Below are positions 13,658-35,718 of a stretch of DNA of 64,000 nucleotides, piece by piece; the stretch's first letter is position 1; every line of letters begins with the position of its first letter. The notes under the pieces were generated by a model. The model had not been told where the DNA came from. It was given only the letters and a program-made list of their open reading frames with translations, and did no database searches. Made by a program: the position numbers and the translations under genes. This DNA is from Naegleria gruberi (lineage: Eukaryota), in NCBI GenBank assembly GCA_000004985.1, contig GG738859.1; one strand, written 5' to 3'.

Positions 13658-16600
13658 ATGAAAAAAGGCTTCCATAACAACTTTTGGACTGGCTCAAACA
13701 ATGATGAAGGCAATGCCTCAAACAGCCAGAACAGAAGAAAACCGGAAGAGTTATCCGCAAAAGCAGAACAATCCAAGTTTTCTAAAACACTCAAAACAAG
13801 ATTGTATTCAAATAGGGATGAAAAACTAAGTCAAGGATCTGATAACATTTCCTTCGCCAAAACAACAAACATTCAAAAACCAAAGGAAATTAAATCAGAA
13901 CAATTTTCATCGACTCAGAAGAGAATGAAACCAAATGACTTGGACTTCTTCAACAAACCAACAGATGAAACAATGCAACTTGTAAATATTAGGAGTCCAA
14001 CACCACAAAATAGGATTGAGGAAGGTGAAATCAAAAGAGAGGCCTTTGACAAATCAACAATAAGATTAAAACCTCTATCATCACAATCACCAAGACTAGA
14101 AATGGATGATTCAAATCCATTGAATCCTCTTAAAAAATCGCCAATGTGGTTCATAGGTTGGTATTTTATTGATTGTTAATATTTTCTTACATTTAAAAGA
14201 ACGACTAAAGAAAAATCCATCCAGTATGGAATATGTCTATCTAGTTCCGTATCAAGATGAAACAAATGAACCTTATAACCCATACAAACTACAAATAGTA
14301 TCACATGCATCAATAGCAGATAAACCAGATTATTATACGCTGAGTGCAACTGGTGTGACACACTTTATTAATGGAGAAGCAGGTTAGTATCAATTTTTTC
14401 GTTCTATTTCATTGAATATTCAATATTTTAGATTTTACTCCATTAACTAGATGGGTTCAAGAACATGATACTTTCCAAAAGATACTCAAAATCAAATTCT
14501 TTGCTAATTTCAGAAAGTGGAAAGCCTTTTATTTCTTTAAAAAGTTGATAACCAGGAAAAAGAGAGCTATTTCTTCTGCTACATTAAACGAAAGACTCTT
14601 TTTCATCAATAATAACAAATCACTAAGAGATATCAGATTAGAATGTATTAAAATAACCGAGTTGGAATTATTTAAAGATAACAAGGGTGAAACCCTAACA
14701 GTTGAAGATTTTACAAAGAGGCAAGAATTACAAAAAGAAGAAGTTAGTCGACAATTGATCGATATTTGTGATGTAATTGCTGATATGATTTACGAAGCTT
14801 GTAGAGATACTATGATTGATGCAGGATTTGGAGACCGATTTGGGGATTTGGATCAAATTCCGGATATTGAACAAAAAAATAAGGATAATGGAAGTACTTT
14901 TGGTTTTGGAAAGAATGAAGAGGAAAATGATGATGAATTCGAAGAAAAGACATCAGTAAATAGATCAATGAGATCTATCTCTGCTAAGAAAGGGAGCAGA
15001 AATAACCTCACAAGTAATTTCCAATCATTCAATATGACATATACAGAAAAATCCTTAAAGAGAAAAGTTTGCAAGAGAATTATTAGTTTTATTAGGTTAT
15101 GCGACTTTTTGGTTTTAGATTCATTGATTGAACTTGTCGAAAAATCTGTTGAAAGAATTTTGCACAAGATTGTTACACTTTCTGAGAATAGTGACAAGAA
15201 CATTGAAGAAGAAATTATGCAGCTAGGTTTAATAGGAACTGAAGATTTAGAAATTGTTCCATTATTTAAAGTAGACATTAGATTCTCTGATCAAAAATTA
15301 CAAATTCTTCCTTCTAAGGAACAATTCGATAAGAGAGTCTCTAAAGTTATTGAGGGATTTTTCGAGGCAATTAGACTTGACAAATTCATTACTAGAAAGA
15401 AATTTGAAGAATACACTGACCCTGTTATTAATGATAAGGGTGCTGATGCTATAGTAAGCGAGGGAATCACAGTTAAAGAAAGAATAACAAGAAGAGAATC
15501 GTATGACAGATTATTGAAGAGTATCAAAGAAACACTTTCTATTGCCTTCAAAGATGTTGAAAAATACGCAAAAGAATACGAACCAATCAAGGTCAAATAT
15601 TTAGAAAACAAGGAAATGTTAGAGACTGAGGTATCTTCTTTAAAGGAAAAAGATTTGCCATTGGAATGGTTCCAAGACGAAATGAACAAGTACAAACATC
15701 AGGATAGAGAGGTTAAACAAATGAGAACATACAAGTATAAGGGAATTTTCTATGTAGATACACAAATGCTAAAAGAAACCTTCTCTCCTTCACCAACAGA
15801 ATGTCTTAAGAAGTTACACATTATTCTTCCAGAATTGTCAAAGGACAAGAATCAAATACTGTACAAAAAATTGGAAAAAGCCATGGAAAGGTTTAAGGCT
15901 TTCCCTGCATCTGTTGAGGACTTTGTAGAATTTTTAAGATTTGTTGAAAAAACAGTCGCTAGTCTGGATGAGTTGGAGACTGAATTCAAGACAGTATCTG
16001 ATTTCTATAAATTAATGGATGATGAGAAAGTTAAGGTTCCAGTGGAAGATAAGAACTTTTTCCAAGATTTTACTGTTTCTACCATATCTACTCTTAGGTC
16101 TTCAATCAGTAGAGCTGAAGACAGCAAAGAAGATCGTATCAATAAGTTCTCTGTCGATCTTAAGAGAAAGATTGATGATCTTAGAGGAGAAATACAAGAT
16201 TTCTTGGAGAAATCAAAAGATCCTATGGTTTCAGATGTAAATTATGCAGATAGTAGGGATAGAATCGAGGACGTAATATCATACCTTATGGATCTTAAGA
16301 ACGGTATGGATAAGGCTCAAAAGAGATCAATAGAGTTGATAGGATATCAAGAACTATTCAAGGTTAAAACTGATAGTATTGATGAAATGCCAATTATTGC
16401 CAAAGAAATTGATCACAAACTCAAACTTTGGACTACCATGAGAAGCTGGAACGATTTTGAATCAGAAAACAAATGTAAAATTTTCAAGGATGTTTCTGCA
16501 GAAGAGGTTAAAAGAAATATTGATAACTTCCAATATACAGCCTCATTCTTGCAAAAGAATTCAGAGGAGGAAAATCCTGTTACAAAGAAACTCTCAGATT

Positions 16601-19600
16601 ATACTGACAACTGGCGATTGGTACTTCCAATCATTGAAGATTTGAAGAATGTCTCTCTTAGAACAAGACATTGGAGAATTTTGGACAATATTGTTGGATC
16701 CACCATATCCGAGAAGAACTTTGAGCTGTCTCTATTGTTCGATTCTGATATTATTGAAAAGAGAAAGAGAATTCAAGAAATTTCTGAACAAGCTTCAAAT
16801 GAAGCTTCACTGGAAGAACAGCTCAAGAAGGTCAAAGAGAACTGGTTCAAATCAGAATTCCCTATCGTTTCACATAAGGATATGACAATTATTGGAAGTG
16901 TTGAAGATATCATGTCATTGTTAGAAGATGACAGAATTGTTCTCTCAACAATTTTAAGTTCAAGATTTGTTACAGCCATCAAGGATCAAGTTGAAGAATT
17001 ATTCAATGATCTCAATTTGATATACTCTACTATTCAAGAAATTATTTATTGTCAAAGAAAGTGGATGTACCTCGAAAATGTTTTTGTATCTGCAGATATT
17101 GCTGCAGAATTGAAGGAAGATCACAAATTATTTGTTTCCATTGACAGATTCTATAAGGAAGCAATGAAGAGGGCAAAAGAAGTTAAGAATGTACACAGAG
17201 TTATTATTGGTGCTGAATCCTCTGTTAAGAGTGGTTTATACGACAAGTTGAGAGTACATAATACTCACCTTGATAGAATTGAAAAGAGTTTGGAAGAATA
17301 TCTTAAGAAGAAGAGAAATCTTTTCCCAAGATTCTACTTCTTGTCCAATGAAGACTTGATCGATATTTTATCGCACACAAGTAACCCACAAGCTGTTCAA
17401 CCATATTTACCACAATGTTTCGAAGGTATGAAAACTCTTGACATTGATTCATCCAAGTACGTAAAGGGTATGATTTCTAAGGAAGGAGAAAGAGTTCAAT
17501 TTGTTTCCACTACAACAAGAGCCGACGATGTAGTTGAAGACTGGTTAAGAGAAGTAGAACAACACATGTTCGACACTCTTCGTCAATTTATGAAAAGAGC
17601 AGTCAGAGATTATCCAAAGAAGGAGAGAACAGTTTGGATGAGAGACCATATTGCTCAAGTTGTATTGACTGTTTCTCAAATTTATTGGAGTTATGATGTT
17701 ACAAATTGTCTTACTTCAGAAAATCCAAGAAAGGAACTAGAAAAGTTTTACGACAAATCTATTGCTTTGCTTAATGATTTAGCTTATTTAACCAGAACAA
17801 AACTTTCATCGAATGAAAGAAAGCTTATTGGTACAATGATTATTTTGGACGTCCACGCCAGAGATGTCATTAAGGCTATGATTGAAGAAGGTGTTAATGA
17901 TGTTAATAACTTTGGTTGGTTGAAACAACTTAGATTCTATTGGGAGTCTGATGTTGATGATTGTATTGTTAGACAATCTAATTCAGTATTCAGATATGGA
18001 TATGAATATGGTGGCATTCAATCTAGACTTGTTATTACACCTCTAACCGATAGAGTTTACATGACTTTAACAGGAGCTCTTCACCTTAACCTTGGTGGCA
18101 GTCCTGAAGGACCTGCTGGTACAGGTAAAACTGAATCTGTAAAGGATTTGTCTAAAGCTTTGGCTAGACCTTGTGTAGTTTATAACTGTTCTGAAGGTGT
18201 TACCTATACAATGATGTACCAATTTTTCAGTGGTATTGTTCAAGTTGGTGCCTGGGCTTGTTTTGACGAATTTAACAGAATTAATGCTGAAGTGTTATCA
18301 GTTATTGCTACTCAATTACTCACTATTCAAGATGCACTAAAGGCTAAAAAGACAAGATTCATGTTGGAAGATGATCAAGAAATTTCTTTGAGACATACTT
18401 GTGGTGTTTTTATTACTATGAATCCTGGTTATGCTGGTCGTACTGAGCTTCCAGATAACTTGAAGGCTCTTTTTAGACCAGTGGCTGTCATGTTACCTGA
18501 CTACAGAATGATTGCCGAAGTTATTTTATTCTCTGAAGGTTATCAAGATGCATTACCTCTCTCTAGAAAGATGACACAATTGTACAAGTTGTCTAACGAA
18601 CAGCTTTCTACACAAGATCACTACGATTTCGGTATGAGAGCTATGAAATCAGTACTTGTTATGGCTGGTGAATTGAAGAGAGCTAATCCTGATTTGAGTG
18701 AAAGCACAACTTTAATGAAGGCCATGATTGACAGTAACCTTCCAAAATTCGTCCAAGAAGATATTTCACTTTTCCAAGGTATTGTTTCAGATTTATTCCC
18801 AGGTATTCAAGCTCCAGAAGAAAAACATGGTGAATTGGAAGTTGGTTTTAGGGATATTATTGCCAGAAAGGGTCTTGAACCTGTGCCGAACTTTATCAAG
18901 AAAGTTGTACAGTTTTATGATACATTAGTGATTCGTCATGGTGTTATGTTAGTTGGACCAACTGGTGGTGGTAAATCTGAAATCAGACATGTTCTCTATG
19001 ATACTATGAACTACCTAAAGGAAGAAAAACGATCAAACTCCTCTAGTGTATACAAAGTTCAACAATACCTTTTGAATCCAAAATCAATTACATATGGAGA
19101 ATTGTATGGTGTTCTTAATATGACTACCCAAGAATGGTTTGATGGTTTAATCCCGTACTTTGCAAGAAAAGCTACCAAGGACACATCTGAAGACAAGAAA
19201 TGGATTATTTTTGATGGCCCTGTTGATACTCTCTGGATTGAAAGTATGAACTCTGTTTTGGATGACAGTAAGCTTCTTTGTTTAGATAATACTGAGCGTA
19301 TCCAATTGAATGATAAGATCAGCTTCATATTTGAGGTTCAGGATTTGGCTGTAGCTTCTCCAGCTACAGTCAGTAGATGTGGTATGGTTTTCGTGGATCC
19401 AGTTGAATTGGGTTGGAAGCCATATGTTTCATCGTGGTTGAGAAATTCTACCGTTTCTGCTTTGAGCTCGGAAAATAAGGATGTATTAGAAAAGCTCTTT
19501 GATGATTATGTTCAAGACGGACTTGATTTTATCAGAAATGAATGTTTTGAAGAAGTGCCAAGTAATAATTTGAACTTGGTTACAAGTTTGTGTGGTCTTA

Positions 19601-22600
19601 TTGATTCATTATTTGTGGATCATAAGGAGAAATTAGATGGAGAGAAGACAAAGCAACTTGTAAACTTTGTATTCCTTTTCTGTTATATTTGGTCTATTGG
19701 TGCCAATATTGTTGATGAATCCATGGAGAAGTTTGATAGATTTGTTAAAGAAAAGTTCAAGAAGGCTAATATTGTACCATCCAATGGATCTGTTTATGAC
19801 TTCTTTGTAGATTTCGAGGCAGTCTCTTTTACTACATGGGAAACCTTGAAACCTACATTCTCCTATTCAGGAAATGTTCCATTTTATGAAATTATTGTCC
19901 CAACAGTTGATACTGTTAGATATTCATATCTCATTAAGACCTTACTTAAAAATGAAAAGCCAGTTTTGTTCAATGGTAAGACTGGTGTTGGTAAGACCTC
20001 TATGATATTCAATGCACTTCAAAACTTTGAATTTAAACATAAGGGTGAATCATTTGCAACTGAACTTGTATCAGTTCAATTTTCAGCAAGAACCGATAGT
20101 GGAAGAACTAGAGAAATGATAGAAAGTAAACTTGTGGAAAAGAAGAAAGCTCTTTATGCGCCACCAGGAAAGAAGGTTGTTATATTTATTGACGACCTCA
20201 ATATGCCTAATCTTGAACAATTTGGTGCTCAACCTCCAATTGAACTTATTAGACAAATGATTGGATGTGGTGGTTTCTTCGATGTTTCTAACAGAGAAGA
20301 ATTCCCTTGGAAGATGGTTCATGATTCTACTGTTGCAGCTGCATGCGGTCCTCCAGGAGGTGGTAGAAATCCAACAACACCAAGATTAATAAGATTATTC
20401 CACCTCTTTAGAGTACCTGAATTGTCAAAGAATAGTATGACTTTAATCTTTGAAAGTATTCTTGATGGATTCTTTACATTCAACTCTTTCAGTGAAGATA
20501 TTAGAAGTTCAACAAAACCAATAGTTAAAACAGCTATTGATTTGTATGGTAGAGTTTGTGATAGATTCAGACCAACTCCAAGTTGTGCTCACTATTCTTT
20601 CAACTTAAGAGATTTATCAAAGATTTTCCAAGGTATTGTTCAAGTTAAACCTTCTATGAAGGATTCAAATCAATTCCTTAGGCTTTTTGCCCACGAATCT
20701 TGTAGATGCATGTTTGATAGATTAATTAACTTTAAGGACAGAACTGACTTCTCCGCTATCCTTATTGAACTCTTAAAGAGGTACTTTAAAGGACAGAACT
20801 GGGAAGATTCTGATTTCTTAGGTGATAGAGCTATTGCATTTGGTAATTTCATGGAAAATGGAGATAGTGAGGAAAAGCCATATGTCCAACTCAATTTGGA
20901 TAAAATGCAAACTGAGCTTGATGATTACCAAATGAGATACAATCTCAATAATACAGGACAACTTGATCTTGTTTTCTTCCCTGATGCCGCAAAGAATATT
21001 ATTAGAATTGCCAGAATTTTATCTCAAAAGAGAAGTAACGCGTTATTGATTGGTGTAGGTGGTTCTGGTAAACAAAGTCTCACTCGTCTTTCCTCTTTCA
21101 TTGCAGGATATAAAACATTTGAAATTAACCTCAAGAGAAATTATGATATTGATGACTTTAGAGAAGATCTCAGAAGTTTATTTAGAATGGCAGGAGGTGT
21201 TGAAGGAGGACCAATGGTATTCCTCATTACAGACTCCCAGATTGTTGATGATGCATTCCTTGAGGATGTTAATAATATTTTGAACTCTGGTGAAGTTCCA
21301 AACTTATTCCCTTCTGATGAAAAGGAAAAGCTTATTAATGAACTCAGACCATTAGCTCAAAAAGCAGGTATTACAGAAACTAGAGATGCTATTTATGCCT
21401 ATTTTATCAGAAGAGTCAGAGATAACCTTCACATTGTTATTTGCATGAGTCCTGTTGGTGATGATTTCAGAAGAAGAATCAGAATGTTCCCATCCCTTGT
21501 TAACTGTACCACTATTAATTGGTTTGATGAGTGGCCAGCTGTTGCGTTAAGAGGTGTTGCTCAAAGAAAGTTTGAGAAGATCAATGTTGGTAATGAGCAT
21601 ATTAAGCAAAAGCTTGTAGACACCTGTGTATTAGTACATAGTGATATTACAGAAATAACAAAGAGGTTTGAGGATGAAACAAGAAGAAAATTCTATATTA
21701 CTCCTTCTCATTATTTGGAATTTATTAATTTCTATGGTGAATTATTGGAAGAGCAACGTCTTGAATTAAAGGAAGCAAAAGACAAATTGCAAAAAGGTCT
21801 TTTCACTCTCCAAGAAGCCAATAACAAAGTAGCCTCTTGTGAAAAAGAAATTGAAGAACTTCAACCAATATTAGAACAAAAGACAATCGAAAATGCAGTT
21901 ATCACCAAAGAGGTTATGGAAAAGAAAACACAAGCAGACAAAGACAATGAAATTATCTCTGCAGAAAAGAAGGAAATTGACGAAAAGGCTAAAGTTGCTG
22001 AAGCAATGAAAAGAGATGCTGATGATAAGTTGAAGGATGTTTTACCAGCTCTGGAAGAAGCTGAAAAGGCTGTCAGTGAAGTTGGTGGACCTGAATTGAA
22101 CTTGATTAGATCATATCAAAATCCTGTACAACCAATTAAGGTCACTTTAGAAGGTGTATTGATTTTGTTAGGCGAAAAGAAAACTGATTGGGAAGCTGCC
22201 CAAAAGGCTATGAGCTCTATGGACTTTAAGAAGAGAATTCTTTCCTTCAAGGAAACTATGAAGGAAAAGATGACTCCTCAAATTATAGCTAAAATCAAGA
22301 AATTGATGAAGGATGAAAACTTTACAGAAGCAGTTGTTTATAAGGCCTCTGGACCTGCTGGTTCTTTGTGTAAATGGGTTAGAAAGATGATTGAATACTA
22401 TGAAGTTGAAAAAATCGTACAACCATTGATGGACAGTGCTGCTGCTGCTCAAGAAGAATTAGAAAAGCTCTTGTCTACATTAAGAATCAAGGAATCAGAA
22501 TTGCAAAAGAAGACAGAATATCTTTATCAACTTCAACACCAACTTGAAGAAAATAGTAAGGAAAAGATTAGATTACAAGATCAAAAAGAAATTTCTGAAA

Positions 22601-25600
22601 GAAGACTTGTTGCTGCCAAGAAGCTTACAGTTTCATTGAAAGAAGAATATGAAAGATGGACCCTCTCTGTTGGAGAATTCGATGAAAGGATCAAGAATAT
22701 TGCTGGTGACATCTTTTTAGCCAGTGCTTTCATTATTTATTGTGGTCCATTAACTGCTCCTTACAGAAAAGAGTTACTCGATAAATGGTGTGGATATTGC
22801 AAGGATCAAGGTATTCCATTTAGTGACAACTACTCAATTGATAAGGTAATTGCTGACCCTATTGGTATCAGAGATTGGGGCATGCAGGGCTTGCCGATGG
22901 ATAATTATTCCATCCAAAACGCTTTAATAGTTACCAAGACAAAGAGATGGCCGCTTCTCATTGATCCTCAAGAACAAGCAAACAACTGGATTAAGAATAT
23001 GGAAAAGGGTAACACACTCAAGACATTGAAACAATCTGAAGATAACTATATCAAAACTCTGGAAAGTTATATCACAACCGGTAAACCTGTAATGGTCGAA
23101 GGACTTTCAGAAAAAATTGATCCAACACTCCAACCAATTTTGAGTAAGGAAGTTTTCAAGAGTAAGGGTAAATTAGTATTGAAGATGGGTAATTCTGAAA
23201 TTGACTTTAACCCATCCTTCAAGTTGTACTTGACAACCAAATTAGCAAACCCTCATTACTTACCAGAAATTTGTAACAAGGTAACTCTGGTTAACTTTAC
23301 AGTTACTTCAAAGGGTTTGGAAGACCAATTACTTGCAGATGTAGTCAGAATTTTGGAATCAAGTCTTGAAGAAGAAAGAGACAGGCTTATTGTTAGTGTC
23401 GCCGACGACAAGAAAACTTTGAAGAAGATTGAAAAGAAGATTTTGGATAGCTTGTCATCGGTCAAAGAGGACGAAAATATTCTTGACAAGACTCAAATTA
23501 TCAAATCTCTAGATGACTCTAAGAACACCTCTAATGTCATTAAAGACAGAGTTAAGATTGCTGCCGAGACAGAAATCAAGATTGAACTTGCCAGAGAAAA
23601 ATATAGAAGCATCGCCTCTCGTGGTTCCATCCTTTACTTTGTTCTTGCAGATTTGGCAAAGATCGATCCTATGTACCAATATTCTCTTGAATATTTTAAG
23701 GATATTTTCAATAAGTGTATTAGAATTACCAAAGATCAACATCCTTCATTAACCACAGACCAATTGCTTCCTATTTTAATAACCAACGTTACCGAATTTA
23801 TCTTTACAAACGTTTGCAGAGGTCTATTTGAGAAGGACAAGATTATTTTCTCCTTCTTGATTTGTGCAAGGATTTTAATGTTTGGCCAAGTAATTGATGA
23901 AAATGAATGGTTATTATTCCTTAGAGGTGCTCCTTTAACATATGATAGTAAGAATGAACTATCTGAATGGATTTCTGATATATCTTGGAATTTACTTACA
24001 GCTTTAGATGCCGAAATTCCTCAATTAAAGGGAATAACTGCCTCAGTAACAGGCCATGTCTTCACATGGAAAAAGTTCTTTGAAGATAATGAATCTTTCA
24101 AAAAGGTTCTTCCTCTTAATTGGGAAGGAAAAATCAAACCTTTCCACAAGCTTCTATTAGTTAAATGTTTTGCAGAAGAGCAAGTTTTGTTGGCAAGCAA
24201 GGAGTTTGTCAAAAACAATTTGGGTGAATCGTTCATTAGACCACCAGGTTTAGATTTGGAAAAAGCTCTTAATGACTCAACCCCTAGTACTCCAATTACA
24301 TTCATCCTTTCCCAAGGTGCTGATCCTACAAGTATGTTAAAGAGATTCGCAATTGAAAAGAACCATGAGTTGCATATTAAATCACTTGGACAAGGCCAAG
24401 AAACATCAGCCAAGAAGCTTATTGAAAGAGGAAGAAAGAATGGTGAATGGGTTTTATTACAAAATTGTCACTTGTTTGTTTCATTTATGCCTACTTTGGA
24501 AAATATTATTGCTGAATTCTCATCACCAATGGCTGTTGTACATAAGGACTTTAGATTGTGGTTGACATCTATGCCTTCAAAAGATTTCCCTATCCCAATC
24601 CTTCAAAACAGTGTCAAGGTAACTAATGAACCACCAAAGGGATTGAGATCAAATCTCAGTAGAACTTATAATGAAATTACCGATGAATACTTTTATTCAT
24701 TCGAAGATGGAGAAGAATTCCCTGATTGCAGTAAGAAATTGGCATTCAGAAAACTGCTCTTTGGATTGTGTTTATTCCACGGTGTAATTCAAGAGAGAAA
24801 GAAGTTCGGTCCTTTGGGTTGGAATATTAAGTATGAATTCAACGATTCTGATTTGAGTGTTGCCCAACTTTGGTTGAAGATGTTCTTGAAAGAAAGGGAA
24901 ATTATTCCATGGGATTCATTGAACTATGTTATTGGTGAAATTGTTTACGGAGGAAGAGTAACAGATCCAAATGATAGAAGAGCCCTACTAACTATTCTGT
25001 CTCAATATTTTGAAAAGAAAATTTTATCAAATGACTTTAGGTTCGCTCCTAACGATATTTATAAGGTACCATCTAGTGATCCAATTGAAGATTACAGAAA
25101 TTTCATCCTAGCACTTCCAGATAATGACGAACCAGCCATCTTTAACATGCATCAAAACTCGAACATGGTATTCCAAATGCAAGAAACACAGTACCTTATT
25201 AGTACATCTATGGGTACCCAAGCATTAAGCTCTGGTGGTTCAAAGCAACATCAAATGGATTCTATTGTTCAAGAAATTGCAAACAGTAAGTATTATTATA
25301 CCATATTAATTCTAATTTTTCTTTTAGAAATTATTTCCAAACTTCCTGAAAATCTTAGTAAAGCAGAGGCAGGTAAGAACACATTTATCAGAACAGAAAA
25401 AGGTGCTCTTCACTCTCTTTCCACTGTTCTTAGCCATGAAATGATGAAGTTTAACAAGTTACTTGATACAATTAGAAGCACTCTTGTTGAGCTCCAAAAG
25501 GCCATGGCAGGTTTGGTATTGATGTCTGGAGAATTAGAAAAGACATTCAAGAGCTTATTGAACAATGAGGTTCCAGAGTTATGGGCCGCATATCCTTCAA

Positions 25601-26151
25601 GAAAACCTCTTGGTTCTTGGATAGAAGATCTTGTTGAAAGAGTAGCATTCATGAGAGGTTGGTTGAGAAATGGATTACCAAAAGCATTCTGGCTGTCTGG
25701 ATTCTTCTTCCCTCAAGGCTTTTTCACTGGTGTTCTTCAAACTTACGCTAGAAAGTACAATGTAGAAATTGATTCCTTGTCATTCTCGTTCAGAGTTCTC
25801 TTCGAAATGACTCCTGAAGAAATCCATGAAGGCCCTGAGGACGGTGTTTATGTTTATGGTTTATACTTGAATGGTGCCAAGTGGAATAAGGAAAGAGACA
25901 CCCTAGAGGAATCAGAACCTGGAGAAATGAATGTGAAAATGCCAATTATTCACTTCCTTCCAGAGAAGAATCACAAAACATCACCAAAATGTTATGAGGC
26001 TCCACTTTACAAGACCAGTGAAAGAAAAGGAAAACTATCCTCTCTTGGTCAATCAACAAACTTTGTTATTTCAGTAGAGTTACCAACAGAAAAACCACCA
26101 GCCCACTGGATATCTGAAGGTGTTGCTCTGCTTTGCCAACTAGATATTTAA
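13658..26151 (+). CDS. Axonemal dynein heavy chain, single-headed inner-arm type (~4,090 aa); 4 exons
   Basis: Exons are ~13658..14156, 14200..14382, 14432..25285 and 25328..26151. Introns are GTTGGT...AAAAG, GTTAGT...TTTTAG and GTAAGT...TTTTAG. The N-terminal region motif is YYTLSATGVTHFINGEADFTPLTRWVQEHDTFQKILKIKFFANFRKWKAF. The AAA1 P-loop is GPAGTGKTE, AAA2 is GPTGGGKSE, AAA3 is GKTGVGKTS and AAA4 is GVGGSGKQS. Coiled-coil stalk, AAA5/6 and the conserved C-terminal domain (FWLSGFFFPQGFFTGVLQTYARKYNVEIDSL) are all present. The start codon is uncertain. Confidence 0.85.
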
Positions 26152-27121: not shown

Positions 27122-28090
27122 GTGTCAAAAAAAATGGAATACAAACTCTCTCGTGAAACTTATGATTTGTATTGCTCTCTGTTGAGTAGTGCTGTAAAGA
27201 GTCATCGTTCTGGGAGTATTCTCACTCCATTTCCTATGTATTTTATGAAGAATTCAAAGAAGGATTTTGATCATTTGAAGAAGACCTTGTCCGAGATGCC
27301 TCAATCAGATCAATTATTTAAAAAACAAAATGAAATGATTTTTAGTGATATGAATAATAATTTAGTAGAGAAAATTCGGGAATGGATTGAAACCAATTGG
27401 AAAGATAAATATGAGGAATGTAATTTGGACGATATTGTTGCCTTGATGGAATTTATTATGAAGAAACAATCAAATAAGAAGTTTTCTGTTCATTATATTT
27501 CATACCAGGAGTATTTGAAAAAAAATCCAAAATTATTGATGAAACCAGATCATATATTTGAATTGAAATATAATAGTGATGAATTTGATAGGAAGAGTAA
27601 TGATTTTTATACAGGTTTTCATGGAAGCTCAATTGAAAATTTCTTTTCAATCATTACAAATTCGTTACAAAATTATTCTGATACTGAGCTAATGAGAACT
27701 GGAAATGCCTTTGGAAATGGAATTTATTTATGTGAAGATGTGAGAGTGGCAAGAGATTTTTCGAAAGGAGCTGTTATTGATTGGAAAAATACAACACTTG
27801 GAAGTTATTTATCTGCAGTTGTTCAATGTAAAGTAGTGGGTAAACCACATTATGCACTAAAGGGTCAACAAGAATCAAACGAAAAGAATAGATATTTGAT
27901 TGTAAATAGAAGCGAAGATGTTAGAATTCAATATGTTTTATTATTTTCCCATTTCAAAAATGAAAAAGAATTAGAAAGCTCAAGAAAGTTTTCCTATGGT
28001 ATGATCTATGTCTATATTATTCTCTTACTTGCTCTAATAATAGGAAATTATTGGAAGGATATCAAGAGAGAATTAAAGAGATATAATTAA
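27122..28090 (+). CDS. PARP16: PARP16-like tail-anchored mono-ADP-ribosyltransferase
   Basis: The 322-aa ORF is collinear with human PARP16 as recalled. [23 protein letters not shown] matches [42 protein letters not shown] matches [31 protein letters not shown] matches [24 protein letters not shown] matches RVKYLLVYSQ. A single C-terminal TM ([18 protein letters not shown]) indicates a tail anchor. Confidence 0.8.
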   Translation: [322 protein letters not shown]

Positions 28091-30370: not shown

Positions 30371-32585
30371 CTAGGTCTTTTTCACTGTCTTGCTCAAAAA
30401 ACTGAGAGTTGGTCTCATTAATCTACTACCACTATTACTTGGAGAATTTCCACTCTGAGAGGATCCACCTGATTTAGTTAGTGTTCTCTTACTATTGAGA
30501 CTGGAAGAAAGGTCATTTGTTGATTGTTGCTTATTCAACGTTGAGGATGCTGTTCCACCGAAACTAGATCTTAGTGTAGTCCTTTCGGCTGCATTAACGT
30601 AAACTCCTGAATTTTCTTCTTCATCTTTTGGTCTGCTCTTAGGTGCTGAAGAAGGTCTCTTTTTACCATTTCCACTAATATCATTCTTAAGGGTACTACT
30701 AATGGTTGGTTGATGTAAAGTTGAGGACATTGGTCTGGTGAGAGATGTCCTGGTTACACTAGGTGAAATTGACCTCTTTTCTCGTGTGGTTGTTCCTGAG
30801 GTCTTTACGAAAAGAGGAGCATCTGTGGCAAGAGATCCTGTATATGAGTAATTAGTGGTATTTTCAGCGTCAACTTGCTTGGAGAGTCTATGATTCAAAT
30901 TAGAATAGGTTGTTACGGTTGCATTTGACGATTCAGTATTATTTTCTGGTTCGCTTCTCTTAGGTGGAGTTGGTTTTCTGAATTTCATTGGAGCATGAGA
31001 CACTGGAGTCTTTGGAGTACTTGAGTTTGTTGAAAACGAACTTGGTCTTCTTCTTCCCGAGTTGTTTAAAGAGTTGTTATTAGAATTTAAGGCTGTGCTC
31101 ATATTTGTTGAATGTTGCATTGAGGAAACTTGAGTAATTGGCTTTTTCTTCTTCTTCTTTTTAATGTCATCCTCAACATCAATGCTTGCAATGGAGCTTC
31201 TTTCAGAAAAACTATCTGAAATATTATCCTTTGCAACAAGTGGTTTTGGATCCATTGTGGGCATTGGTTGTTTTAACACAGGAGTAAATAAAGTTGCTGG
31301 CAAATTATTCTTTGCCTCTGGTCCTGTCAAAATTTGGAGTCCATCATTGTCACAAGAATCATCCAATGAATTAGTTTCCGGATCAATTAAAGTTAAACTT
31401 CTTGGTTTAGCATCCATAATTCTTGGTATTTCTTTAGGTTTTATACTAGGAATTTCTTTCACTGGTTCAGTGACAGTTTGTGGGACCACTTGTTGAGGGA
31501 TCACATCTTGACTTGGATTTGAAGGACTTGAGCTATTTGATGATGTTCCTGATGTTGAAGGATTGGTATTATTAATGTTAGATGATGTTACTGTTGTTGG
31601 AATTTGGTTGTTAGAAGGAATTGTTGGAGAATTTTGAGTGAGGATTGGTTGAATTGTTTCAGTTTGTTGTATTGGAATTTGAACCTGTTGAGGTAACAAC
31701 TTTACTCTAAGGATTCCTTTAATTGGAACTCGTTCCTTTGTTTTAGGATCAACTGTTGATACCATATGTCTACTTCCCGGCGGCTCCTCTCTCAGTGATA
31801 TTGTGAGCTTTTTCCTCATATTCTTCTTTGGTGGAGGTGGCAAAGGTTCTGTCAAAGGCAAACTATTCAAGTACTGATAAAGTTGTATTATTCAAATAAA
31901 ATTGGGTACATACTGTATTTTTCAAAAGTAATTGATGAATTTCCTCTTCAGTACTGGAAGGAAGATCTACTGAAAATATATCCTTAGTTGCATTGTTTTT
32001 ACGAGCAAATTCTTTCAATTGTCTCAAGAAGTAATTCTTAATTCTCATATCTGGATGAGCTACTTGCATAAAGGCAAGAGTACTCTCCAATGACCAAGAA
32101 TATTTGAAAATAAAATAAGCAGCAATTAAAACACATGACCTGGAATTTCCATGAAATGATTGCACTAAAACACACTCTCCCTTTTCGAATGCTTGATCTA
32201 TAAAATTGGCTACACGTGTAATATTTCTATCTCTACTATCAAGTAAAACGGTTGTTGGAACATCCCTCCAAGGAAACGTTAAATATTCAATTCCATGATC
32301 AGCATATATATTTGCAGCTTCCAATCCAGCACAGTTTACTACATGGCTCACTTTGTTTGAAAAAAGGAATTCATCATCTTGTGCAGCAATAGAATTTCCT
32401 ACAAATAGACCATCCATAATTCTGACTGCTAATAAAAGTGTAGGACCAGGAGTTTCTACTGGTACAAAGTGTGGTTGCTGTTGTTGGTTTCCAAAACTTC
32501 TGGAATTAGTTATTGTATGGTTGAATAACCCTCCTCCAAAATCGGAGGAAGAATTATTAGCAACCTTTGATATAATATTATTCAT
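30371..32585 (-). CDS. DUSP-fold pseudophosphatase (catalytic Cys->Ser, His->Gln) with a long S/T/P/N-rich C-terminal tail; 2 exons
   Basis: ORF 31863..32585 has a dual-specificity phosphatase fold (VSHVVNCAGLEAANIY...WRDVPTT...FIDQAFEKGECVLVQSFHGNSRSCVLIAAYFIF...LESTLAFMQV). The HCxxGxxRS loop reads QSFHGNSRS. A ~40-nt intron (GTATGT...TTATCAG, ~31864..31903) joins it to ORF 30371..31870 (YLNSLPLTEPLPPPPKK..., then ~480 aa of low complexity). Confidence 0.7.
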
Positions 32586-32720
32586 CAGAGACGATTATTT
32601 CGCTGAATAGTCTGACTATCAATGATGTCCTTAATGATGGGTTTTCTCTACTACAGTTAGCTTACAAGTTGTATTTGTAAATAGAGGGAACGGCTACTGT
32701 TATTTTTTTAAAATTTAAAA

Positions 32721-32951
32721 ATGTTTTCCCGCCATCAAGCAACAAGAGTAGAGCTGAATCAAGATGATGTAGCAGAGTTTGAAAGGACGATACAGGAAAT
32801 CGAAGATGAATTATCAAGAAACCAACAAGTAGAGTCCGATCAACAACAACAAGTAGATAATAATTTAAATATTCCTTCTTCATTAAATAATAGAATTGAC
32901 CCAAATACAGATATTAGAATTGGTTATTCGGAACAACAAAGAAGATTTTAA
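32721..32951 (+). CDS. Small acidic/Gln-rich ORF (76 aa) of doubtful coding status
   Basis: The sequence is MFSRHQATRVELNQDDVAEFERTIQEIEDELSRNQQVESDQQQQVD... It sits in the gap between two minus-strand genes, and its stop codon is directly adjacent to the AK6 stop. No family recognised. Confidence 0.2.
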   Translation: MFSRHQATRVELNQDDVAEFERTIQEIEDELSRNQQVESDQQQQVDNNLNIPSSLNNRIDPNTDIRIGYSEQQRRF

Positions 32952-33560
32952 TTATTTTTGAATTTTGTTTTGTACAAGAGAAACAATGAATTCTGCATTA
33001 TTATTCAGATCCATTATTGTGATGTTTTGCTTTTCAAAAACAATTTCTGGTTTGTAACTTTCTTGAGCTTCATCCGAACAAACTTGGAAAATTTCGCAAT
33101 CAACATTTTCTTGAACTTTTTGTTCTGAATATCCTCTCTTTTCCAAACGTTTAAATAATACATCAGGATCACATCTTAAAACAATAACAAAATCAATCCA
33201 TCGTTCTGGGAATAATTCACTACTATGATAATCGATAACAAATCCCTTTTCCAAATCAGATAATTTTTCTTCTAAATGATCCAAAAGTTTATCTTCATCA
33301 AGAACATATGTATCTCTTTCACTATCGAATTCCTCAACAAATTGTTCACCTTTAGCAATTTCGGAAACATTCAAATATTCATAATTTGTTAAATTAAGTT
33401 TTTCCTTTAAAGAATTGATAACAGCTTCTCCCATAACAGTCTTTCCGACACCAGGGGTTCCTGTCTCATAACGATATGTTAGATGATGATTTACTTCAAT
33501 GTCCAAACTTACCTGTGATGAGGATATTTGGATAGGTACGAAGATCTGGTGATGTTTGCA
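32952..33560 (-). CDS. AK6: Adenylate kinase isoenzyme 6 (AK6/Fap7/hCINAP); 2 exons
   Basis: Exon 1 (33513..33560) is MQTSPDLRTYPNILIT. A 42-nt GTAAGT...GAGACAG intron follows. Exon 2 (32952..33470) is GTPGVGKTVMGEAV...YLNVSEIAKGEQ...YVLDEDKLLDHLEE...GFVIDYHSSELFPERWIDFVIVLRCDPDVLFKRLEKRGYSEQKVQENVDCEIFQV. The P-loop and overall order are typical of the AK6 family. Confidence 0.85.
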   Translation of the reverse strand, partial: CKHHQIFVPIQISSSQVSLDIEVNHHLTYRYETGTPGVGKTVMGEAVINSLKEKLNLTNYEYLNVSEIAKGEQFVEEFDSERDTYVLDEDKLLDHLEEKLSDLEKGFVIDYHSSELFPERWIDFVIVLRCDPDVLFKRLEKRGYSEQKVQENVDCEIFQVCSDEAQESYKPEIVFEKQNITIMDLNNNAEFIVSLVQNKIQK

Positions 33561-33612
33561 TTTTTTAATTGAATTCACTCAAAAATTATTTGAAGTGCCA
33601 AATGTTATTTAT

Positions 33613-35718
33613 TCAGTTTTCTTCATCACTCATGGTACCATGTTGTTCTTTTGTTAATACTTGATGATCTTGTTCCTCTTCTTGCTCTGACTCATCCTGT
33701 TCTGATCTATCCTTAGTATCTGAAAAGACATAGAGTATGTGACACTCTCCACGACCAATATTTTTCATACTATATGAATTGAATGGTGGAATATGAATTA
33801 CAGATCCAAGTTTCATTTGGATGGCTGGGTTTGTATGTACAACGACGGATGCCTGACCTTTCAAAATATATAAAACCTCAGATTGGGTACTAGTATTGGA
33901 GCTTGGTTTTATACCACCAGGTTGAATTATTATTGTTCCTACACCTACACCCTTCTCTGTCAATGAACTGTAGATTGAAAGTTGTGCTGTATCTTCATTA
34001 GCTTTGATGGTAGCATAACCACCAGCCTTAGTTTCATCCTTTCTGAATTTGAAATGTGAACTTTGATGCATTTGGGCAGTAGCATAAATTTTAACATCCT
34101 CCTCTTCGCCAAACTCATTCATAACTTTGTAGATTCCATCAGTTACATCACTAAGTGGATCAACTTTTCTCTTTCTTGGCTCTACAGGAGCCTTCTTCTT
34201 CTTTTCTGGTTCTGTAACAACTGGTTTGACTTTCATTAGTTTACCAGCTTCCTTAGGCAAAGGTCTTTCATTTTCCCAAAATTTACATGGTTTAGTGACC
34301 TTTCTTCTCAATCTAGAATCCACAGAGTTACTTGTTTGAATGCCCAATGGATCTGTTCCATTATCAACATCCTCATTTTGAGTGCTGATAAGTGTTGTAT
34401 TGAGCATATCATTTTCTTCTTCATTTTCACTAACAGCAGCATTGAAATCTTCGTCGTCTTTGTAAACCTTTTCATTCACTTCTTTGGCTTCCTCGTCGTC
34501 TGTTTCATCTACATTTTCTATATCTTTTAAAAGAGCTTCTCTGAGTACATATTTTTCTCCAATCAGCTCTGTTTGCTTTTGGGAAAGTTTTACTTCTTCA
34601 TCACGATAAAAGTCTCGCCCTAAATCCACATTAGATTTTTCCAGCTGAGTAGGTCCAATACCAGAGTCCTCTAGTGTTGCTTTCGGTTGAGAAGATTTAT
34701 CAGATTCGTATTCAGATTCTGATTCAGGTTCTGATTGAGGAAGCGATGCAGGGAAACTTTTAAGTGCTTGTTTTTGTTGCCTAGATTTTAAACTTCTTCT
34801 ATTTTCTCTGTCATCTGATTCATCGTCATCTTGTTCTTCCTCAGAGGATGAGGATTTCTCATAAATATATTTCTTTGTTTTCCTAGGTTCTGATATCTTT
34901 CTTTTCTTAGGTTCTGGTTGGAATGTTTGTTCCTCCTGCTCTTCAAAAAGATTATCGAATGCATGATCATCATCTAAGCCTCCTTGTTCAATATCAAATG
35001 TAGGTGTAGGTGTAGGAGGTGCAATGATATCTGCAGCTTCTGCTGGTTGTTCTTCTTCCCTGAAGGTGTCTAGAACTGGTGAAACAGGTGGTAGGGATAT
35101 TTTAGGTGAATCGGGTTTCTTAGGTTGCTTAATTGTGACAGTTGGTATTTTCACAGAAGTGTCATCCTCGGAAGATGATGTGACATACTCCATTGAAGTT
35201 TTATCAATTTTAAGAGCTTCATCTGGAGATTGTTCATCACCTGATGAACGAAAAGTAACAGCTGTCTTTGAGCTTAGCATACTCATGGTATCATCACTAT
35301 CATTCATAGTAATGTTTGATAATGACAATACACTCGATTGGTCATCTCTATGTAATTGTTGATTAAAGTTCTGATTATTGTTTGCTTCAAAGAAGGCATT
35401 CGGATCAACAGAGTCGGTATTTACAATTATTTGTCCAGATCTTTTACCAATATTTTGGAAAGCATTCTGTGATGCCAACACATCATCATAACCTTCTCTT
35501 TGGCGGGTTCGTGGAATATAACCAGTACCTTCTCTTGTTTGTAAGGCTGATCTTCTAGGTGCTCTTTCCGCAAATAGTGCTGCTGTTAATGATGCAGATG
35601 GTGGTCCCATTATTGGTGGTTGTTGGTTGTTGGCATTTGATGATGATGGTTGTTGGTTACTATTTGATGCCGAAGGGAAACCATCTTGTCTTTCATTATT
35701 CATTTTTGAATTATTCAA
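33613..35718 (-). CDS. CENPC: CENP-C/Mif2-like kinetochore protein (CENP-C motif + C-terminal cupin)
   Basis: The 701-aa ORF has a disordered S/N/Q/E-rich N-terminal two-thirds. The CENP-C motif is SVDSRLRRKVTKPCKFWENERPLP (compare human RRTKRTRLKPLEYWRGERI, recalled from memory). The C-terminal cupin fold is GTIIIQPGGIKPS...EVLYILKGQASVVVHTNPAIQMKLGSVIHIPPFNSYSMKNIGRGECHILYVF. Confidence 0.7.
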   Translation of the reverse strand: MNNSKMNNERQDGFPSASNSNQQPSSSNANNQQPPIMGPPSASLTAALFAERAPRRSALQTREGTGYIPRTRQREGYDDVLASQNAFQNIGKRSGQIIVNTDSVDPNAFFEANNNQNFNQQLHRDDQSSVLSLSNITMNDSDDTMSMLSSKTAVTFRSSGDEQSPDEALKIDKTSMEYVTSSSEDDTSVKIPTVTIKQPKKPDSPKISLPPVSPVLDTFREEEQPAEAADIIAPPTPTPTFDIEQGGLDDDHAFDNLFEEQEEQTFQPEPKKRKISEPRKTKKYIYEKSSSSEEEQDDDESDDRENRRSLKSRQQKQALKSFPASLPQSEPESESEYESDKSSQPKATLEDSGIGPTQLEKSNVDLGRDFYRDEEVKLSQKQTELIGEKYVLREALLKDIENVDETDDEEAKEVNEKVYKDDEDFNAAVSENEEENDMLNTTLISTQNEDVDNGTDPLGIQTSNSVDSRLRRKVTKPCKFWENERPLPKEAGKLMKVKPVVTEPEKKKKAPVEPRKRKVDPLSDVTDGIYKVMNEFGEEEDVKIYATAQMHQSSHFKFRKDETKAGGYATIKANEDTAQLSIYSSLTEKGVGVGTIIIQPGGIKPSSNTSTQSEVLYILKGQASVVVHTNPAIQMKLGSVIHIPPFNSYSMKNIGRGECHILYVFSDTKDRSEQDESEQEEEQDHQVLTKEQHGTMSDEEN

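Follow-up and report, generated by a model that had tools for sequence, protein, structure and literature searches.

Pseudophosphatases are few and are mostly understood only in animals. Among those with a dual-specificity phosphatase (DSP) fold, STYX carries the loop HGX5R, and MK-STYX, reported from vertebrates, carries FSX5R together with an N-terminal CH2/rhodanese domain (PMC8907265). STYXL2 (DUSP27) combines an N-terminal DSPc domain bearing a Cys-to-Ser change with a long C-terminal region that carries its function, on non-muscle myosin II (PMC11147509). In kinetoplastids, the 2007 TriTryp phosphatome listed Trypanosoma brucei Tb10.70.6300 (555 amino acids (aa), loop VHSQLGMSRS) and its T. 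cruzi and L. major orthologues as 'STYX' in group 6 (PMC2175518), and a 2010 review repeated that kinetoplastid STYX-type proteins are inactive and uncharacterised (PMC2994645). A related gene of Naegleria gruberi is described here. It occupies positions 30371-32585, minus strand, of a 64,000-nucleotide (nt) stretch of contig GG738859.1 (about 33% G+C; this whole stretch is referred to as the window), and its spliced product of 724 aa joins a DSP-fold domain, in which both the nucleophilic Cys and the adjoining His are replaced, to a 500-aa tail predicted to be disordered. It is considered highly probable that the protein is at its core a pseudophosphatase with a scaffolding role. The best explanation overall, to which a probability of about 0.7 is given, is a non-catalytic reader of phosphorylated ligands that scaffolds partners, possibly protein phosphatase 1 (PP1).

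The domain and its gene

The DSP-fold domain was delimited to aa 48-196 (31998..32444, minus strand) by Pfam, AlphaFold2 (AF2) and Foldseek. Pfam DSPc (PF00782) matched aa 60-195 over all but one of its 133 profile positions (1-132), with a score of 62.1 bits (cut-off 33.5; E=6e-17). For aa 48-262, AlphaFold2 gave a model whose core had a predicted local distance difference test (pLDDT) score above 90, and Foldseek aligned it (E ~1e-11, target-normalised template modelling (TM) score 0.88-0.94) with the catalytic domains of DUSP7, DUSP10, SSH2 and MKP-2/MKP, with no preference for STYX. The best phmmer match among PDB sequences was DUSP22 (2e-11), and a profile built from 18 family members again found DUSP22 (1.5e-23) with the register unchanged. 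A first-pass annotation of this DNA had proposed a DUSP fold, and Pfam, the PDB alignments, the confident AlphaFold2 model and Foldseek agree with it.

The canonical loop H-C-x2-G-x2-R-S/T appears here in the degenerate form Q142-S143-F-H-G146-N-S-R149-S150 (32136..32162, minus strand). In both the phmmer and the family-profile alignments, LVQSFHGNSRS was laid on LVH(C/S)LAGVSRS of DUSP22 without a gap, placing Gln142 on the His, Ser143 on Cys88 and Gly146 and Arg149 on the P-loop Gly and Arg. Asp108 of the D-loop W106-R107-D108 (32262..32270, minus strand; Asp108 codon 32264-32262) aligned to the general acid, the third residue of AAD in DUSP22. Three independent alignments (Pfam, phmmer and family profile) had Ser143 at the nucleophile position, Gln142 at that of the His, and Gly146, Arg149 and Asp108 where they are usually found. 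The loop, Q142-S143-x5-R149, thus departs from the HCX5R signature required for an active enzyme. The Cys-to-Ser and His-to-Gln changes and the retained P-loop Arg had all been reported in the first-pass annotation, the catalytic-site change as readable directly in the minus-strand DNA, and the codons bear this out: caa (Q142, 32162-32160), tca (S143, 32159-32157), gga (G146, 32150-32148) and agg (R149, 32141-32139). Together these data show a DSP-fold domain without the Cys nucleophile and without the His, in which the P-loop Gly and Arg and the D-loop Asp are kept.

Two ways in which the loop might have been misread were considered and rejected. A Cys nucleophile in an alternative register is contradicted by the absence of any C-x5-R string in the 724-aa protein and by the agreement of the three alignments on S143. 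A sequencing error at 32150-32170 is excluded because an independent metagenome contig (L005), differing from window 31760-33221 at only 5 of 1462 nt (99.66% identity), encodes an identical exon-1 open reading frame (ORF) and loop, and because three orthologous Naegleria-clade loci, from N. lovaniensis (L001), a Logan assembly (L002) and a metagenome (L004), all read LVQS, in the form LVQS(L)(H/Y)GNSRS. The near-identical contig (ENA ERZ929261, run ERR1078381, PRJEB11402) indicates that this amoeba strain, or one very close to it, was present in that environmental sample.

The coding sequence, established from the ORF list and its translation, consists of two long minus-strand ORFs in different frames. 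Exon 1 (31914..32585, minus strand; 224 codons, aa 1-224) encodes a low-complexity N-terminus, the DSP domain and the first half of an LLKNT|YLNSL helix, and exon 2 (30371..31873, minus strand) encodes aa 225-724 and a TAG stop, comprising the S/T/P/K/N-rich disordered tail with its conserved short motifs. They are joined by a 40-nt intron (31874..31913, minus strand; GTATGT...CAG, GT..AG) that shifts the frame, and reading through it leads to a stop after 16 codons. Exon 1 ends with codon 224, ACA (Thr), exon 2 opens with TAC (Tyr225), and the junction reads ...AAAAATACA|TACTTGAAT. The span of 30371-32585 had been given exactly in the earlier annotation; its intron had the right length of 40 nt and was set about 10 nt too far 3', at 31864-31903.

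In N. lovaniensis and in several metagenome gene calls the locus is split into a DSPc protein and a tail protein, and the N. lovaniensis assembly has a frameshift inside the domain. These records would favour two separate genes, one for a DSP protein (240 aa) and the other for a low-complexity protein (499 aa), or a decaying pseudogene, a reading to which hardly any credence is given. The split calls ignore a canonical GT..AG intron that lies at the identical codon boundary in four genomes (the window, L001, L002 and L004), with lengths of 40 nt in the window, 57 nt in L002 and 41 nt in L004. Furthermore, no ATG opens the exon-2 ORF, and splicing restores LLKNT|YLNSL, of which N223, T224 and N227 show little or no variation among homologues, transcriptome-derived ones included. 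The segment NTYLNSL is contiguous in the complete gene model of Willaertia. The unspliced exon-1 ORF also recurs identically in an independent metagenome (P0164). The division into two genes, in N. lovaniensis as in prokaryote-style metagenome calls, is an artefact that arose because the intron was overlooked. As for the frameshift, it is located in a T-run, and the other three sequences are free of it.

The N. lovaniensis annotation holds a 189-aa DSPc protein and a 465-aa 'hypothetical protein', divided at the unrecognised intron. Its frameshift, at about 3890-3910 of L001 (PYSW02000026.1), gives NYFCDS* where the other three sequences read NYFLRQLK, and looks like a missing T in the T-run.

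Among the Naegleria-clade orthologues the domain is 93-95% identical (5-7% of residues differ), with 0.03-0.05 non-synonymous differences per site (pN) against 0.67-0.79 synonymous ones (pS), the synonymous sites being saturated. The tail is 56-57% identical between orthologues and contains sharply conserved islands. As judged from these substitution patterns, strong purifying selection is shown to act on the domain, and decay is therefore excluded. The gene models are also corrected: annotations of Naegleria and of metagenomes were split at a 40-57-nt intron, hiding the domain-plus-tail architecture.

An HSx2Gx2R family in protists and its named relatives

A search with the full-length protein yielded 21 homologues at E<=1e-5, the closest being from Willaertia magna and N. 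lovaniensis. A DSP domain was contained in 17 of the 21, in every case with Ser at the nucleophile position. Across 18 aligned homologues S143, G146 and R149 were invariant, and His occupied position 142 in all but the window sequence. Ser143 was likewise invariant in the alignments designated A1 and A2; Arg149 of the P-loop was invariant and Asp108 of the D-loop was at least 90% conserved. A profile search of 1.84 billion representatives recovered 471 cluster representatives at E<1e-30. The loops that could be parsed (n=136) comprised 118 HS, 6 QS, 5 other x-S, 3 HC, 2 HD and 2 HG, i.e. about 129 with Ser.

The residue at the His position, by comparison, varies within the family (Q, W, N, F and V). 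His-to-Gln is common to four Naegleria-clade sequences, namely the window and the three orthologous loci, and Willaertia reads IHS; Gln at this position recurs independently in P0032, P0042, P0066, P0092 and P0145. On this distribution the His-to-Gln change is the part specific to the Naegleria clade, and the Cys-to-Ser change is not a local event and appears to be ancestral. Three members (P0035, P0037 and P0075) read HCx2Gx2R, one of which, P0035, carries a kinetoplastid-type RRRRLIFVDT; these could be either reversions to an active enzyme or relics of an ancestral active form.

Named members include Euglenozoa (kinetoplastids, diplonemids and euglenid-like transcriptomes, the last so called from their record names), ciliates (Tetrahymena, Paramecium, Blepharisma, Halteria and Ichthyophthirius), the dinoflagellates Effrenium and Polarella, and the brown alga Choristocarpus. 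A helix of the form [LI][RK]NT[YFL]xN[SGA] directly follows the domain in 185 retrieved proteins; in the window it reads LLKNTYLNS across the splice junction, with N223 and N227 as invariant positions. A single dead DSP lineage is thus old, strongly selected and common to Discoba, alveolates and at least one brown alga.

One of the retrieved proteins, P0016, is T. brucei XP_822419, i.e. Tb10.70.6300, which is 54% identical to the domain of the window protein (E=2.2e-52). The kinetoplastid 'STYX' proteins (Tb10.70.6300, Tc00.1047053506977.10 and LmjF21.0700) are orthologous to it and share the HSx2Gx2RS loop, the LRNTxxN helix and a long low-complexity C-terminal extension. They differ in keeping the His, a canonical RR[IL]xFxDT and RKGSPLP, and in being without the RLMRPTLSFL C-terminus, whereas the Naegleria protein has Gln and KKLTI. 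By sequence comparison, the window protein appears to be the Naegleria-clade orthologue of an ancient, widespread protist family of pseudo-DSPs. The gene is not a new kind of protein, the family having been flagged as inactive already in 2007, and the window protein is an unsurprising addition to it, a lineage-specific variant at one residue. What is added is the depth and strictness of the Ser conservation, the fused Naegleria gene model, the separate descent from STYX and MK-STYX, and the PP1-docking hypothesis.

In the first-pass annotation the protein had been described as being of 'STYX / MK-STYX style', which stands as an analogy and fails as orthology: DUSP22 outscores STYX, and there is no rhodanese domain. 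Like MK-STYX, the window protein has the His replaced, Cys changed to Ser and the P-loop Arg kept (FSX5R there, QSX5R here). MK-STYX, however, has a rhodanese domain and no long tail, whereas Pfam found only DSPc in the window protein, where the DSP domain is N-terminal. Sequence similarity to STYXL1 is weak (9fqr_Xs, E=7e-4 with phmmer), and STYXL1 was absent among the 60 matches listed for the family profile. The active-site losses of MK-STYX and of the window family are independent, given the missing rhodanese domain and this weak similarity. STYX resembles the family in having a dead DSP-fold domain thought to bind phospho-ligands, and its structure 2r0b is superposable (target-normalised TM 0.85). 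It differs in being a small single-domain protein with Gly at the nucleophile position, whereas the window protein has Ser and a long tail. Against the family profile 2r0b reached 1.2e-15, compared with 1.5e-23 for DUSP22, placing STYX far below DUSP22, DUSP19 and DUSP3. Because the family is not orthologous to STYX or MK-STYX, the 'STYX' label of the kinetoplastid proteins is a functional one and not a statement of orthology.

STYXL2 shares the architecture, an N-terminal Cys-to-Ser DSPc domain followed by a long non-catalytic C-terminal region, and is a protein of 1138 aa specific to vertebrate striated muscle. Architecture alone was compared, and orthology is unlikely since the family profile prefers DUSP22, DUSP15 and DUSP19. 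Among solved structures DUSP22 and DUSP15 are nearest in sequence, with the best score of all going to the engineered trap mutant DUSP22 C88S, but they are active HCX5R enzymes of about 160-200 aa with no tail. STYXL1 and DUSP21 of sperm axoneme structures were among the matches; a ciliary link is not claimed, because the window family is not orthologous to either.

As to function, the domain would have no thiolate with which a phospho-enzyme intermediate could form. It would therefore act like a built-in Cys-to-Ser 'substrate-trapping' mutant and may bind a phosphorylated ligand without hydrolysing it. The nearly invariant Ser, together with the strong selection, argues that what has been selected is the binding of a ligand in the pocket and not simply the loss of catalysis. 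The same strictness could be turned the other way. Ser in about 129 of 136 loops is far more than loss of function alone would require, the pocket residues Gly, Arg and Asp are also kept, and even STYX tolerates Gly at the nucleophile position (PMC8907265); the domain might accordingly still be an enzyme that uses the invariant Ser, with Arg149 and Asp108, as nucleophile or in another reaction, e.g. on a non-protein phospho-substrate. That a residue conserved in this way should be catalytic is nevertheless judged quite improbable. The His beside the nucleophile varies across the family and has given way to Gln throughout Naegleria, conservation is lacking at the position that aligns with the N-loop Asn128 of DUSP22, and engineered Cys-to-Ser DUSPs serve as inactive ligand-binding forms, three of which were among the matches (DUSP22 C88S, DUSP7 C232S and DUSP1 C258S). 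Furthermore, no natural phosphatase of the protein tyrosine phosphatase (PTP) fold with a Ser nucleophile is known to us.

The predicted disordered tail and its possible partners

The tail, aa 225-724, consists of 16% S, 11.4% T and 10.4% P. In a full-length AlphaFold2 model pLDDT was below 50 for nearly all of it, and for 503 of the 724 residues overall, and secondary structure after residue 228 was limited to two isolated single-residue marks. The tail is accordingly predicted by the model to be disordered, with islands of conservation; an S/T/P-rich disordered tail had been proposed before with a length of about 480 aa, which falls short of the actual 500.

The conserved islands are RKKLTISLREEPPGSRH; DPKTKE-VPIKGILRVK; PRSLTLIDPETNSLDD; KFRKPTPPKR; KKRPSSAPKSRP; and the C-terminal SRLMRPTLSFLSKTVKK. 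Conservation across lineages was read from an alignment of heterolobosean, euglenid-like and diplonemid sequences (A3). Nearest to the domain lies R244-K-K-L-T-I249 (31799..31816, minus strand), the Naegleria form of a family-wide RVxF-like motif, basic-[LIV]-x-[FW]-x-[DE], in which the aromatic residue has become Ile. It is followed by the SILK-type [GS]IL[KR] motif K276-G-I-L-R280 (31706..31720, minus strand), likewise a feature of the family, with I278 invariant and L279 at least 90% conserved in A3. Further along, K521-FRKPTPPKR-530 (30956..30985, minus strand) is kept in Heterolobosea and in P0005, and K628-KRPSSAPKSRP-639 (30629..30664, minus strand), a conserved basic Ser-containing motif and candidate basophilic-kinase site, is found in 7 sequences. 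The C-terminal motif S707-RLMRPTLSFLSKTVKKT-724 (30374..30427, minus strand) has R708, L709, P712, T713, S715, F716, L717 and K719 invariant in A3. It forms the extreme C-terminus in 16 of its 17 carriers, the exception being P0085, and the carriers include the euglenid-like transcriptome sequence P0011 and Diplonema P0015.

Such islands may allow the tail to scaffold partners through short linear motifs. A phospho-substrate trap or scaffold, with a tail that could be a phospho-regulated platform, had been put forward in the first-pass annotation, and these putative roles gain evidence from the strong purifying selection on the domain and from the linear motifs conserved in the tail. Its many basic-x-x-Ser/Thr sites (RRRPSSFS, KKRPSSAP and KRSISP) make it a plausible kinase substrate as well. 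A separate motif, [RK]KGSP[LMP]P, is kept in the tails of 21 Euglenozoa-type members (e.g. at aa 377 of P0016 and aa 713 of P0015), is absent from the Naegleria protein, and represents a lineage-specific candidate for a proline-directed or basophilic phospho-site.

RVxF and SILK are two widespread PP1-anchoring motifs, and PPP1R2 (inhibitor-2) uses GILK together with the degenerate RVxF sequence SQKW (PMC11561318, PMC11536154). Within 90 aa after the LRNTYLNS helix, the pattern [RK][RK]?[VIL]x[FW] was present in 125 of 172 members compared with 8% of composition-matched shuffles, common though not universal, and mostly 16-40 residues downstream of the helix. Bona fide RVxF sites typically stand in contexts such as RVSFAD and RVTFSED, and an acidic residue stood at +2 in 109 of the 125 motifs. 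The strict [GS]IL[KR] motif occurred at a consistent distance in 25 of 163 members (1.1% in shuffles), and a relaxed form in 30% of members (4.4% in shuffles). A basic-[LIV]-x-[FW]-x-[DE] motif followed about 30 aa later by [GS]-I-L-[KR] may thus form an RVxF/SILK-like docking pair for PP1. The likeness to PPP1R2, confined to the motifs, lies in a disordered region with GIL[KR] and an RVxF-type motif about 30 residues apart, a degenerate RVxF being tolerated there (SQKW; PMC11561318). B56 LxxIxE and calcineurin PxIxIT were considered as the identity of [KR][LI]x[WF]xD and rejected by inspection, on spacing.

At the level of the family, the motif pair tentatively suggests PP1 as the partner. 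For the window protein this step is weaker, because its RVxF-like motif reads KKLTI: PIKGILR matches the SILK pattern [GS]IL[KR], but RKKLTISLRE, with Ile at the F/W position, matches neither the family motif nor the RVxF pattern [KR][KR]?[VIL]x[FW]. The Willaertia counterpart is KKKLTFSMKEE. The family could be envisaged as PP1 adaptors in which the dead phosphatase domain selects the phospho-target. In its most general form, which is regarded as rather doubtful, the proposal would make the whole HSx2Gx2R family unrecognised ancient regulatory subunits of PP1, the dead DSP domain reading a phospho-target and the motifs of the adjoining disordered region recruiting the PP1 catalytic subunit, which would act on that target or on its neighbours. 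If so, recognition of phosphorylated ligands by a PTP fold would be linked to recruitment of PP1, and a pseudophosphatase would specify substrates for an active phosphatase from another superfamily; the absence of both the P-loop His and the RVxF aromatic in Naegleria would then mark a rewiring specific to that lineage, and parasitologists would have a testable hypothesis on Tb10.70.6300 and LmjF21.0700.

Several points weigh against a phospho-ligand reader that scaffolds PP1. With regard to the motifs, Leu occupies the 'V' position in 54% of the family motifs, where Val or Ile is typical of RVxF; a more stringent RVxF definition retains 40 of 172 members, and the strictest retains 3 of 172. 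RVxF precedes SILK here, opposite to the arrangement in PPP1R2, and Ile replaces the aromatic residue in each of the four Naegleria-clade sequences. No literature was found on binding of the PP1 catalytic subunit by the family. With regard to the domain, Ser could in principle serve other chemistry, and the full-length AF2 model gave no confident contact of the tail motifs, the RLMRPTLSFL C-terminus included, with the domain or its dead active site. Literature on the Tb10.70.6300 and LmjF21.0700 orthologues consisted of classification papers only, and biochemical data on any family member were not found.

The basic-Phi-x-Phi pattern, furthermore, also fits the docking (D/KIM) motif for mitogen-activated protein kinases (MAPKs), described in ELM as a basic cluster followed by [ILVM]-x-[ILVF]. 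Read in this way, the protein would be a dead anchor resembling MAPK phosphatases (MKPs) that binds and sequesters a MAPK, a role reported for both STYX and MK-STYX. In the window the stretch KKNMRKKLTI conforms to the generic D-motif, its Ile at the second hydrophobic position suits that motif better than RVxF, and MKP catalytic domains are among the nearest structural relatives of the domain. Family-wide, however, the 125 motifs selected by the pattern have W (71) or F (54) at that same position, the acidic residue at +2 (87%) is typical of RVxF contexts and not of D-motifs, and a SILK-type motif co-occurs. Pfam also found no rhodanese/CH2 domain. A MAPK anchor, the main rival reading, is consequently held to be unlikely, and a scaffolding reader of phospho-ligands that may recruit PP1 is preferred.

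Genomic neighbourhood

The pseudophosphatase gene is preceded in the window by a PARP16-like gene (ARTD15_N/PARP, 27122-28090, plus strand) and MRP-L20 (29811-30341, plus strand), and followed by an AK6-like gene (AAA_18, 32952-33578, minus strand) and a CENP-C-like cupin gene (33613-35718, minus strand). The gene order (PARP16-like, MRP-L20, pseudophosphatase, a small ORF, AK6-like, cupin) is kept in N. lovaniensis and in two Naegleria-like contigs, despite saturated synonymous sites. Together with the closest homologues, this synteny marks the DNA as that of a Naegleria-clade heterolobosean.

The small ORF, of 76-78 aa, lies between the AK6-like and pseudophosphatase genes (window 32721-32951, plus strand) and is divergent from the latter. 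It is conserved in L001 (2913-3149, minus strand), L002 (859-1089, minus strand) and L005 (271-501, minus strand) with the pattern MFSRHQA[ST]R..L.QDDVAEFERT...D[IV]RIGYS.Q. No Pfam family is on record for it, and from its conserved translation it looks like a real small gene. Elsewhere in the window, an uninterrupted ORF of 3868 aa (14545-26151, plus strand) codes for a dynein heavy chain in which every Pfam family of the motor domain is represented; so long a stretch without an intron is unusual beside genes with short introns.

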